Shown: positions 31,388 through 43,890 of the stretch, piece after piece
How the letters are laid out: every line of letters starts with the position of its first letter
Position numbering within the stretch: the stretch's first letter is position 1
From: a virus
Taxonomy: Duplodnaviria; Caudoviricetes
IMG/VR virus record: IMGVR_UViG_3300032007_000037
Coordinates: 1-64,000 of that record
Length of the DNA: 64,000 nucleotides
Direction: 5' to 3' (one strand)
Program-made: the position numbers and the translations under genes
Notes under the pieces: generated by a model
The model's input: only the letters and a program-made list of their open reading frames with translations
The model's database searches: none
What the model was told of the DNA's origin: nothing

Positions 31388-31473
31388 CTTTCTCTAGCTC
31401 AATTGGATAGAGCGCAGCACTTATAAATAATAGTTGGATGCTGAGGTTCCAAGTTCGAATCTTGGGAGGAAGA
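31388..31473 (+). ncRNA. tRNA-like RNA (Arg-type body) with a 19-nt anticodon loop
   Basis: Normal acceptor, D and T arms; cagca-[cttataaataatagttgga]-tgctg. Confidence 0.7.
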
Positions 31474-31547
31474 CTTTAGATTGGTGAATTGCCATTGGTT
31501 AATTTATTATTGTTGTTATTGAATTATCTTACAGCGGTAAGAGGAAT

Positions 31548-32137
31548 GCCTACTTAGCTCAGCTGGTAGAGCAACAGTTTTCTATGAAAATTAAATGCTA
31601 TGGCGAGAAATCTCATAGTAGAATCTCCCTAATTCGGTGGAAGTCCTTTGTATAATATTCAGATGGGGGAAGCCCATACAGCTAATCAATAATGCTGAAG
31701 AACAATACCGAGCTAAATTGGGAAAGAAAGTAGTGGGAGCTTAAGCAACTATGGATTTTCATTATGAACTGTTAAGTTCGTAAATAATGATTATCACGCT
31801 TTTTCATAAATGCTGATTATATAGGAGATACCTAAGTTGAAATTTGTTACAAAGCAGAGATATACTGTTATATATGAGATACTATCCTCGTTAGAGAATG
31901 TTCCCTCAAAAGGTAAAATACCTGTAACATCTTGCAAGAATTTCAATATGGTAAAAATAGTCCAGACTATAAATGAATAATAGAGTGAGCTGTCACGGCT
32001 GCTATCCTGATATAAAGATAGTAACAAATGTGTAGAGACTGATTAGTTTCAGACTACTCCGGTGAATATTATTCATGCTATGGTAATACAAAGTAGTAGA
32101 AAACTGTAGGTCACAGGTTCGAGACCTGTAGTAGGTA
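31548..32137 (+). tRNA. tRNA (Thr-like body) interrupted in the anticodon loop by a ~517-nt group I intron-like insert
   Basis: 5' half gcctacttagctcagctggtagagcaacagt (31548-31578); 3' half actgtaggtcacaggttcgagacctgtagtaggta (32103-32137). Confidence 0.8.
31583..32099 (+). mobile_element. Group I intron-like RNA, no homing ORF
   Basis: P aattcggtggaa (31631), Q aataccgagc (31704), P3 atctcc/ggagat, P7 gattat (31815)/atagtc (31957), R-like gtgtagagact (32030). Confidence 0.7.
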
Positions 32138-32160
32138 CGGATGGAGAAATGAAGGAAAGA

Positions 32161-32282
32161 GATACATTAGCACAACTGGATAGTGACCCAGACCTTAAAT
32201 CACTGTTCTTAACAGGGTCTTGCATGTTGTCGACAGTAGCAAGAGGTGCTGGGAGTTACAGGTTCGAATCCTGCATGTATCT
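32161..32282 (+). ncRNA. tRNA-like RNA with a branched ~57-nt domain replacing the anticodon loop
   Basis: Acceptor gatacat/atgtatc; D loop aactggata; cccag/ctggg stem; GGTTCGAATCC. Confidence 0.7.
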
Positions 32283-32287
32283 CTGAT

Positions 32288-35490: not shown

Positions 35491-35629
35491 GGAATTGATT
35501 GGTGGAACACTGAATCAAGAGAAGTACAGTGGAACAATGGCTCAGCAATCCTGTCTCTCTAAAAGTTCTCTTGAGCTGAAGGGACTGTATAGGTCTTATA
35601 GGAGAGTTCGATTCTCTCCACTTCCACCA
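35491..35629 (+). ncRNA. tRNA-like RNA with encoded ACCA end and no anticodon loop
   Basis: ggaattg/cacttcc-ACCA; T arm gagag-ttcgatt-ctctc; tacagt/actgta stem enclosing ~53 nt. Confidence 0.55.
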
Positions 35630-35661: not shown

Positions 35662-36450
35662 ATGCAGAAATTAAACGTATTATTAGCATTAAGAGAGAAG
35701 CTAGCTAACCGTTATGCTAACATGGTTGGTGATTACACTGCTTTCTTCAAGAACAAACAAGGTGCTTTTCGTGGTGTTTTAAGAACCCATAGCCCTCTTG
35801 AGGGATATGCTGTAGACCCAACTAAGGTATCAAATGAGAGGGTCGTTACCACTGTCAATGAAAAGATGGATTGGTGGCTTAAAGAAGCTCTTGAGTATAT
35901 CAATACAGCACTTTCCATTGAAGCCAGTAATGGTGAAGGTGCAACTACCGTACCACTGGTATTTGAAGGAAAGACTTATGGCCCTTATCCTGCTACTGTA
36001 CTTCTTCGTCTTAGAGGTATTATAGAAAGTGATAAGTTGGCTCAAATGTTGGCTCAGATTCCTGTAAGAGAGGAAACTATCATATGGAAGCCTTCTACAG
36101 ATGAGGATTATCAGAAGAGGGGTAATATCTTTGAAAATGAGCGTCAGGAAGGTGAAACCAAGACTACTGAAACTCATGAAGAGATTCTCAAAGACCCAAA
36201 TCTTGATCCTAAGGCTCTTCCTTCCAACTATAGAGCACAAGTAACTCAAATTAAGAAGACTGTTAAGACTGGTGATTATACTGTTCAGTTCTTTACAGGT
36301 GAATGGACTCATCAGCAGCGAGCAAATCTTCTTAAGCGTAGAAGTGAATTACTTGATGCCATTAATGTTGCTCTACAGACTGTTAATGACAGAGATGCAG
36401 TTGAATGTAATGTTACAGAGCTTTTCAAGCATCTGATTTATGGTAAATAG
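35662..36450 (+). CDS. Conserved hypothetical protein (262 aa) adjacent to a structured ncRNA
   Basis: Long ORF with high-expression codon usage, embedded among RNA genes. Confidence 0.85.
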   Translation: MQKLNVLLALREKLANRYANMVGDYTAFFKNKQGAFRGVLRTHSPLEGYAVDPTKVSNERVVTTVNEKMDWWLKEALEYINTALSIEASNGEGATTVPLVFEGKTYGPYPATVLLRLRGIIESDKLAQMLAQIPVREETIIWKPSTDEDYQKRGNIFENERQEGETKTTETHEEILKDPNLDPKALPSNYRAQVTQIKKTVKTGDYTVQFFTGEWTHQQRANLLKRRSELLDAINVALQTVNDRDAVECNVTELFKHLIYGK

Positions 36451-36839: not shown

Positions 36840-36941
36840 GGCAGAATGTGCGAATGGTATAGCAGTATTACTTTCACTCGATAGTAATATGGGATAAGAT
36901 TCTAGGAATTATCTATGGAGGTTCGAGTCCTTCTTCTGCCA
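36840..36941 (+). ncRNA. Class II (Leu-like) tRNA body with enlarged anticodon arm
   Basis: Acceptor ggcagaa/ttctgcc; tattact-[ttcactcgat]-agtaata; long variable arm. Confidence 0.65.
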
Positions 36942-37074
36942 CAAAGTATGCTTGTCATACTGTTTAAAGGGTTTAGTTGCCGAATGCAGAGAATAAAGAC
37001 CTTACCGCTGAAAGTAGCGTAACTGGTTATAAATATTCTCTGCATTCTTTTTTTTCACTTTAACGGCATCAAAA

Positions 37075-39574: not shown

Positions 39575-39723
39575 ACCCCTTTAGCTTAACTGGATAAAGC
39601 AATGTTATGTGTTGGTAGGAATTGGGAATTAATTTTTTGGTTCGTGTATTTTGGGTTTGAGCACTACTGACTTTACAAGCGTGTAAAATAACAAGACATT
39701 CAGGTTCGAATCCTGAAAGGGGA
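39575..39723 (+). ncRNA. tRNA-like RNA (Arg-type D loop) with an ~80-nt branched domain in place of the anticodon loop
   Basis: cccctt/aagggg acceptor; gctt-aactggata-aagc; tgttat/ataaca; tcagg-ttcgaat-cctga. Confidence 0.7.
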
Positions 39724-39777
39724 ACTGAGGTAAGGAATAAAATAAAGGAAATAAATAAAATTAAAAGAAAAATAATT

Positions 39778-42843: not shown

Positions 42844-43890
42844 ATGGCAACAATTAAAGCATATACTGACAAGCCCAAAAGAAAGTCTTATTTTAAACAC
42901 AATATAGTTTATTGTAAGAAAGGTGACATTGTTGTTACATATCCTAATGTGTTGGTGGCAGAAAAAGAAACAGGTGTTTATTCAGACAGAATATACAAAT
43001 GTTGTAATGGAAAAATGCGCTATGCTGGAGGTTTTGCATGGTCTTATACACCATTTGAAGAATACCCAAACGATGGTAGGATATGGAAAGATGTAGAAGG
43101 ATATGAAAATCTCTATCAGGTATCTACTGATGGATTAGTAAGGACTTCGCATAAAGGACTGTGGGAGATGCTTTCAGCAGGAAGAAAAAAGCACGGATAT
43201 TATAGTGTTTTACTTCACAAAGACGGCAAACGTAAGAATATGTTAATTCATAGATTGGTTGCTAAAGCATTCCTTCCAAACCCCAATAATTATCCATATA
43301 TCAATCATAAAGACGAGAATCCATCAAACAACCATGTTGACAATTTGGAGTGGTGTACCGCAAGTTATAACAATAGTTATGGTGAACATCCAAAGAAGGT
43401 TAGTAAAGCCGCAAAAGAAAGAACAAGGACAGGCAAGTGCTTTGATGGTTCTGATTATCTTGGAAACATGGTCGCTCCTGTACTTCAATATGACCTTAAT
43501 GGTAACTTTATTCATGAATTTGAAAGTGTAAAAGAAGCAAGAGAAAAATATAGCAGCAGGGTACAAGATTGTCTTAGTGGTAAGACAACTCAAGCAGGTG
43601 GTTTCCAATGGAAATACAAAACCAAAGATGCCTATCCTCTTAAAATTGATGCCTACGTAAAGAATGTAAATCAATCTTTATGTTGTTCCCGACCAATAAA
43701 ACAGCTAAAAGATGGTGTTGTTGTTGCAACTTATGGTAGCATAAAGGAAGCAAGTGCAAAGACTGGCTTTGATTATTCTGGAATAAAGAAATGCTTAAAC
43801 GGCACATACAAACAAACTTTTGGTTTTACATGGGAATACGATGATTGTCCTAATTATAAAAAGAAAGTAATTCATTATGGAACAAAGTAA
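42844..43890 (+). mobile_element. HNH homing endonuclease with several NUMOD1 repeats
   Basis: WKDVEGYENLYQVS; IHRLVAKAF; INHKDENPSNNHVDNLEWCT; three GF.W.Y repeats. Confidence 0.9.

Follow-up and report, generated by a model that had tools for sequence, protein, structure and literature searches.

The split tRNA gene at positions 31548–32137 of the window (the whole stretch of DNA analysed, namely the initial 64 kb of an IMG/VR virus record that is 131,166 bp long and carries direct terminal repeats) is best explained as a splicing-impaired relic, in which a rearranged and catalytically impaired group I intron resides in a redundant tRNA gene. This reading is given a probability of roughly 60%. 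The insert belongs to a large family of tRNA introns from uncultured phages, carries a partial second copy of its own 3′ half and shares a P9 module with another intron of the family. From these features and from the deviations described below, we infer that splicing has been lost and in what order the evolutionary steps took place.

In the proposed mechanism, an IC3 bacterial-tRNA-type group I intron interrupts an Arg(UCU)-like tRNA between positions 36 and 37. The P9 region of the intron has gained the partial second copy, in which J6/7 and the P7 5′ strand are followed directly by the S tail and P9 after deletion of P3′, P8 and J8/7; this second copy represents the seemingly displaced R element. 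The first, complete copy has lost near-invariant J6/7 nucleotides. Further damage affects the guide, which lacks a G–U match to the exon, the terminal hairpin, broken at a recombination boundary, and the terminal G, which comes one base early. In addition, the 12-bp extended anticodon stem may lock both splice sites. The ribozyme would consequently be inactive or strongly impaired, and the gene would be a decaying redundant copy made as unspliced precursor RNA, with an intact tRNA-Arg(UCU) presumably serving the dominant AGA codon. This account is the most economical one. Its mechanism is ordinary, combining partial tandem duplication, non-allelic intron recombination and decay, and no new ribozyme topology is invoked.

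Phage, host tRNA and intron family

The virus is a crAss-like phage of the rumen. In the major capsid protein it shares 63–65% identity with crAss001, IAS virus and related members of the crAss-like group, and the sequencing runs that contain the stretch are bovine and sheep gut metagenomes. Named phages yielded no matches to the locus or to a neighbouring 211-aa gene in blastn and tblastn searches, and a search for relatives via the 211-aa gene found none. The tRNA cluster of the window spans 31.1–39.7 kb. A 262-aa DUF7873 protein is encoded between tRNA-like genes (35662–36450), and a segment of its gene (36164–36415) shows 66–69% DNA identity to Prevotella Lak megaphages. A free-standing HNH endonuclease gene (348 aa, phrog_59; 42844–43890) is located ∼11 kb downstream of the tRNA cluster, and no endonuclease is encoded inside the intron. 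Beyond the window, positions 79994–80178 of the genome contain a second group I intron candidate, which scores 41.1 bits with RF00028 (below the gathering threshold) and 19.5 bits with the family model.

The acceptor, D and T arms of the tRNA gene are intact, as found by ARAGORN with introns allowed, and its anticodon stem comprises 5 bp. By homology, the gene appears to be Arg(UCU)-like, with the intron between loop positions 36 and 37. A20, a typical base of tRNA-Arg, is absent from the D loop, so homology of the anticodon arm and junction is the sole basis for assigning Arg. An intact tRNA-Arg(UCU) is found elsewhere in the phage (35307–35380, 65 bits). The exon flanks form a 12-bp helix (31574–31585 and 32096–32107) with 11 Watson–Crick pairs and one G–U pair, as previously described in the earlier note. 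Seven base pairs of this helix extend the anticodon stem and pair the two splice sites with each other.

With the standard stem, joins that follow the U(−1)/G(ω) rule generate only 6-, 8- or 9-nt loops or an AGA anticodon. Ligation of U31583 to A32100 produces an 8-nt anticodon loop, and that of C31582 to A32100 a loop with the anticodon UCA. A 7-nt loop with U33 and a purine at position 37 is obtained only via C(−1), giving UCA, or via a shifted stem, giving UAG. The earlier note had correctly recognized both the failure of the U/G rule to give an ordinary tRNA and the UCA loop. The ARAGORN call 'tRNA-Leu(UAG), intron 515' was rejected, as it depends on shifting the anticodon stem by one base and separating it from the D stem by two bases; the terminal G would also fall within the P9 strand, and a class I body would carry a Leu anticodon. 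Archaeal bulge-helix-bulge splicing was also rejected, given an uninterrupted flank helix that has no bulges and a phage of the crAss-like group.

Relatives of the phage were located via the capsid protein, and a search of their records with the locus identified homologous introns in two. The first splits a CAU tRNA after U36, and the second splits a Leu(UAA) tRNA after U34. Both introns have U before the intron, G at the end and R at the canonical place. An 18-nt J8/7–S pattern retrieved 106 IMG/VR stretches, most of which lie in tRNA anticodon loops. The family occupies Leu(UAA), Arg(UCU), Lys(UUU), CAU, Leu(CAA), Thr and other tRNAs, with introns of 177–822 nt (IMG/VR loci L103–L210). A U/G splice pair restores a 7-nt loop in 52 of 58 distinct family intron-tRNAs, and four are C(−1) types. 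A guide G is the pairing partner of the C in the C(−1) members L163 and L189 (Leu-CAA) and L203/L125 (Thr-CGU). The 3′ splice site of L203/L125 is situated 4 nt upstream of the usual intron end of the family, and the former intron bases become loop positions 35–38. Decay has precedents within the family. L181 contains a tandem duplication of P7-P3′-P8-J8/7 through a hexamer common to R and S, and its terminal G is replaced by A. In L128 the P7 5′ strand is gone, and ARAGORN calls no surrounding tRNA. Another group I-like lineage (L234, L237, L251, L299 and L324) has R followed by GAUUAU, as at the canonical site of the present intron, and lacks the P8 receptor motif.

In contigs of rumen metatranscriptomes (runs X3–X5), the word depths of conserved intron blocks (31596–31650, 31815–31850 and 31925–31960) are in the thousands, with a maximum of ∼20,000, so RNAs of related phage tRNA introns appear abundant in those libraries. 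The locus flanks have zero cover in runs X3/X4, which was not counted as a sign of selective RNA accumulation.

The insert is a member of the phage tRNA IC3-type (Azoarcus/Anabaena-like) intron family by descent and fold, as judged from homologous introns and a covariation-supported structure, in agreement with the group I core in the anticodon loop that had been suggested earlier. Short members match the Rfam Intron_gpI model over its full length (62.5 and 49.7 bits). RNAalifold analysis of 16 short members recovers P2, P4, P5, P6, P7, P8 and P9, with compensatory changes in 27 of 46 pairs. The helices derived from the intron sequence of this phage (Table 1) were tested on 19 long members including this intron; 93% of cells are paired, compared to 29–43% in slid controls, and double changes occur in 21 of 44 pairs, a result reached by none of 500 shuffles. 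The core order, P3-P4-P6-P7-P3′-P8-P7′, is canonical, with P2 and P9 likewise in order. The core motifs (R with AGA before P7, the 11-nt P8 receptor, J8/7 and S) are presumably those of the Azoarcus IC3 intron.

The Rfam Intron_gpI model (RF00028) gave no match to the locus at the gathering threshold or at E values up to 10. Intact long relatives (L083, L084, L184 and L211) were also missed, so this result is not evidence against a group I assignment. A 49-codon TTG-started frame in P8 and a 77-codon minus-strand frame were rejected as genes, as neither is conserved in relatives.

Table 1. Positions of the exons and intron elements in the window
Feature	Position	Strand	Remarks
5′ exon	31548–31583	+	Acceptor 5′ strand, D arm, anticodon stem 5′ strand (31574–31578), loop U79–U83; end reads UCU; from ARAGORN and alignment with tRNA-Arg(UCU) of L184/L196
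Group I (IC3-type) intron, 516 nt	31584–32099	+	5′ boundary by homology with L184/L196; 3′ boundary by last G before 3′ exon
Internal guide sequence position	31593–31595	+	AAA; GAG, GGA or GUG in relatives, matching their own exons
P2 hairpin	31598–31618	+	Covariation
P3 5′ strand	31623–31628	+	Pairs with 31824–31829; 98% of cells paired
P4 enclosing P5 region	31633–31712	+	31633–31638 with 31707–31712
P6 and extension	31719–31806	+	31719–31726 with 31799–31806
Truncated junction	31807–31814	+	Just CU after last P6 G (31812); 6-nt J6/7 ending AGA in relatives
P7 5′ strand	31815–31820	+	Pairs with 31957–31962; 5 Watson–Crick pairs and 1 G–U
P3 3′ strand	31824–31829	+	Covariation alignment
P8 with 11-nt tetraloop-receptor motif	31831–31951	+	Receptor 31831–31836 and 31947–31951; variable extension of ∼95 nt; 100% of cells paired
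J8/7 and P7 3′ strand (S, 31957–31962)	31952–31962	+	
P9 5′ strand	31966–31970	+	Pairs with 32093–32097
115-nt P9 module shared with L211	31972–32086	+	Small hairpins, including 32002–32006 with 32017–32021
Second, internally deleted J6/7-P7...S-P9 copy	32026–32058	+	R copy 32030–32040; hairpin 32035–32040 with 32045–32050, loop 32041–32044; S-tail/P9-like 32050–32058
Terminal hairpin remnant, P9 3′ strand (32093–32097) and last G (32099)	32078–32099	+	Hairpin 3′ strand no longer complementary
3′ exon	32100–32137	+	Three loop A's, anticodon stem 3′ strand (32103–32107), variable loop, T arm, acceptor 3′ strand, discriminator

Deviations from the family and the second copy in P9

The most prominent deviation is observed at J6/7. 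At the canonical site, AAAUG (31808–31812) passes directly into CUGAUUA (31813–31819). J6/7 is 2 nt long in this intron and 6 nt long in its relatives, and the three positions before P7 read GCU instead of AGA. The three missing bases are taken to correspond to Azoarcus A127-G128-A129, which line the guanosine site. An AGAG run at J6/7–P7 is found in nearly all of ∼75 introns and is absent from the canonical site of this intron. The family covariance model, which was built from short members, scores 30.4 bits on the 5′ part of the intron and 15.1 bits on its 3′ core, where the match starts at P7; twelve relatives score 23.5–52.6 bits in the 3′ core, with J6/7 included. The P7 5′ strand is in order at 31815–31820, and only J6/7 is missing there.

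The only intact J6/7 ending in AGA in this intron is located downstream of S, within the P9 module, where the 11-nt R element is preserved at 32030–32040. In the surrounding stretch (32026–32045), the same 5 and 7 nt as at the canonical site flank 8 additional nt. Among ∼75 real IMG/VR introns, R lies 31–150 nt upstream of S in nearly all, and this intron alone has R solely downstream of S, at +88. Every sequence statement of the earlier note holds, including the presence of P, Q, P3, P7 and S, the AAAUG–CUGAUUA reading at the expected J6/7 position, and the R element at 32030 downstream of S (31957).

An exact search with the R-hairpin-S stretch identified one metagenome contig, L211, in which a 794-nt intron splits a tRNA-Arg(UCU) after U34. 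The guide of the L211 intron is canonical, and so is its R, which occupies the normal place and is accompanied by a P7 that covaries; the terminal hairpin is undamaged, and the terminal G is correctly placed. Window positions 31972–32086 are identical to the P9 module of L211 at 115 of 115 nt. The remainder of the two introns displays ∼53% identical columns in a global alignment, and the insertion sites differ. The extra R reads as a component of a P9 module that was recently exchanged between introns at non-allelic sites. Because the downstream R accompanies a complete core with normal J6/7 in L211, a permuted design is unnecessary as an explanation, and the permuted core proposed in the earlier note was not borne out; the helices are in canonical order, and the R copy is an extra element. 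Alignment with homologous introns, which had been recommended as a check, confirmed the canonical order of the fold.

The second copy was also detected by the family model, which aligns 32027–32097 with model positions 111–209 and deletes 46 positions (P7 3′ part, P3′, P8 and J8/7), in a weak match of 5.7 bits (E ∼0.05 for 701 nt). By eye, a 6-bp hairpin joins the R copy to the S-like tail, and the stretch that follows repeats the S–P9 junction. CUGAUUA is common to the canonical site and the R copy and is absent from the canonical R of L211, which suggests that the module originated in the lineage of this intron by partial tandem duplication and was later passed to that of L211. The direct ancestor was not found with a 14-mer of the R copy, whose 114 matches are mostly due to chance. 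A pattern of S followed by R at 45–75 nt retrieved nothing from metagenome contigs, and an exact search of IMG/VR with the 18-mer of the exon–intron junction was also negative. The R-hairpin-S pattern matched only three near-identical intergenic stretches outside tRNAs in IMG/VR (L212–L214). These stretches consist of an R element, a 4-nt loop and an S-like tail and have the same shape as window positions 32030–32056.

Additional deviations occur at the guide and the 3′ end. The guide AAA faces exon UCU with A–U, A–C and A–U oppositions and without a U–G wobble at the 5′ splice site. In relatives, the guide places G opposite the last exon base, and one relative has A–U. The 3′ strand of the terminal hairpin is mismatched from 32087, the exact end of the L211 identity, as expected at a recombination boundary. 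The terminal G32099 is one base early compared to that of the closest homologue, L184/L196, so ligation of U31583 to A32100 yields the 8-nt loop.

The locus is also represented in contigs from other studies. Contigs from RNA libraries of another study cover 31619–32136 and 31619–32131 with zero differences. They read unspliced from the intron into the 3′ exon, of which they include 37 and 32 nt, and end at the 3′ terminus of the tRNA. Their source may be precursor RNA or DNA in the RNA library; the contigs fit a persisting precursor and are no measure of splicing itself. A joint of ∼31583 to 32100 is not listed in the contigs, which is uninformative on splicing because RNAs as small as a tRNA are seldom captured and infrequent forms are lost from contigs. 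A DNA contig of a third study corresponds to 31985–32190 with zero differences. A variant-strain contig (31709–31844) has 5 differences with the short J6/7 junction unchanged; positions 31803 and 31805 are both altered, and P6 pairing is maintained.

Some observations argue against a relic. P2, P3, P4, P6, P7, P8 and the receptor are intact and the variant keeps the P6 pairing, which would be unexpected of an intron long dead in a compact genome. Moreover, the R copy, 70 nt downstream of S, could pair with S (5 bp) and might in principle supply J6/7 to the core.

Alternative readings

The intron may instead still self-splice and release a non-standard tRNA, with the core using either its short J6/7 or the downstream R, swapped in as J6/7 and the P7 5′ strand. 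Such splicing is possible, although we consider it rather unlikely. Joining U31583 to A32100 would give product (a), with an 8-nt loop in which UCU is accompanied by one additional A; this tRNA might act as a +1 frameshifter at AGA-N. Joining C31582 to A32100 would give product (b), an opal suppressor with anticodon UCA that arises through a one-base shift of the 5′ splice site in an Arg(UCU) gene. Every core helix is intact and supported by covariation, but the canonical site lacks the near-invariant AGA of J6/7. The downstream R, perfect in every letter, can pair with S of this intron over 5 bp; however, the R copy in L211 is unneeded and cannot pair with S of L211, and its perfect conservation would follow from recent exchange rather than from selection in this intron. 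The guide AAA can be aligned with U80-U81-C82, with a C–A opposition at the cleavage site, and the UU that precedes the guide can be aligned with A32100-A32101. The C(−1) introns of the family (L163/L189 and L203/L125) and of bacteria (Williams 2020, 10.1101/2020.01.27.920355) make a non-U splice site possible, but the C of the family C(−1) introns pairs with a guide G, and the corresponding guide base here is A.

The predicted products can also be compared with the coding properties of the phage. Suppressor tRNAs without visible recoding are often found in crAss-like phages (PMC7886860, PMC12386605), which would be compatible with product (b). However, the phage uses the standard code; its largest ORFs become no longer when TGA is read as W or TAG as Q. 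Of 82 long ORFs, 21 terminate with TGA, and the coding strand shows no pairs of ORFs in one frame that are separated by TGA. A UGA-suppressor role is not supported by phage codon usage, and the closest homologue, L184/L196, splices after UCU, not UC. The splicing-gated UGA suppressor envisaged in the earlier note is disfavoured on both counts. For product (a), an Arg tRNA with an 8-nt loop would frameshift at the commonest Arg codon, AGA, which constitutes 60% of the Arg codons of the phage. The frameshift tRNA and the domesticated non-splicing domain, both raised earlier, are possible readings.

Domestication is improbable to a somewhat greater degree. The locus would then encode a non-splicing RNA with a tRNA-shaped scaffold, the 12-bp anticodon-arm helix and a ribozyme-derived cap, and would act like the other insert-bearing tRNA-like genes of the cluster, for example as a decoy or binder of a host tRNA-directed enzyme. 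Four to five neighbouring tRNA-like genes possess acceptor, D and T arms and 12–64-nt inserts in the anticodon arm, and L211 has a tRNA-like gene of similar build and unrelated sequence. The continuous flank helix and the RNA-library contig that is unspliced up to the tRNA 3′ end would also suit such a function. In contrast, no diverged relative with the same arrangement was found in IMG/VR or metagenome-contig searches, the deviations resemble ordinary decay as in other decayed copies of the family, and no partner protein is evident nearby.

The tRNA-like genes of the cluster are located at 31388–31474, 32161–32283, 36840–36942, 39575–39725 and 35491–35629, with inserts of 12, 50, ∼9, 64 and ∼40 nt, respectively, in or after the anticodon loop. 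In two insert-bearing genes, a complete 7-nt loop sequence precedes the insert (position 38/39). The tRNA-like gene of L211 is 123 nt long.

A more specific form of splicing, in which the R copy in P9 replaces the deleted J6/7 through a strand-swapped 'bipartite' P7 and splicing at C31582 produces a UCA tRNA from the Arg(UCU) gene, is highly improbable. An assembly chimera of two related introns, conceivable in rumen samples that are rich in related introns with common 30–50-nt blocks at which contig graphs branch, can be dismissed, as the misassembly that the earlier note had named as a caveat is excluded by the identical 31619–32136 contig of a different study, the agreeing DNA contig of a third study, the same short J6/7 in the variant strain and the independent presence of the P9 module in L211.

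Relation to known introns and implications

Group I introns of the IC3 type have long been known in bacterial tRNA genes. The present intron resembles known ORF-less members of this class in its core motifs (R with AGA, the P8 receptor, J8/7 and S) and in the 36/37 insertion. It is ∼2.5-fold longer, with extensions in P5, P6, P8 and P9, and differs in the truncated J6/7, the extra partial copy of the 3′ half, the lack of a splice-site U–G pair and the phage host. The Agrobacterium-type tRNA-Arg(CCU) intron (Arg.5Ug) and L184/L196 share the Arg-type anticodon arm and the intron position after the third anticodon base. The first 60 intron nt of L184/L196 are nearly colinear with those of this intron. 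However, the guide of L184/L196 is GGA, its J6/7 is complete, its terminal hairpin is undamaged and its terminal G is suited to a 7-nt loop, and this intron fails in all four respects. IC3 introns at position 34/35 of class II tRNAs belong to the same family and represent the commonest phage setting (24 of 52), with canonical splicing and a different insertion site.

No reports of group I introns in phage tRNA genes were found in the literature searched. According to a 2014 review (PMC3984707), all phage introns then known reside in protein genes. Papers on crAss-like phages (PMC7886860, PMC12386605) describe group I introns in protein genes and suppressor tRNAs, and no tRNA introns. In bacteria, 21 tRNA intron settings have been catalogued, including a C(−1) class (Williams 2020). 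The Leu.3Cg introns of Proteobacteria in this catalogue exemplify a base other than U ahead of the 5′ splice site, in a class whose splicing is predicted only; their C pairs with a guide G, whereas the C of this intron is opposite A. The 'enigmatic' tRNA introns of Lak megaphages (Devoto et al. 2019, PMC6784885) are anticodon-loop inserts in phages of gut Bacteroidota and are similar to the small inserts of the neighbouring cluster genes. They are short and unclassified, whereas the insert analysed here is clearly derived from a group I intron.

For the annotation of such genes, a suppressor or Leu label is unsafe when it is based on intron-tolerant tRNA finders alone. If the bipartite arrangement were real, production of a tRNA that reads a stop codon would depend on the folding of this unusual ribozyme. 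The intron constitutes a natural J6/7-less 'mutant' with a spare copy in the same RNA, and it thereby offers a cheap bench test of whether J6/7–P7 can be provided by a non-contiguous strand.
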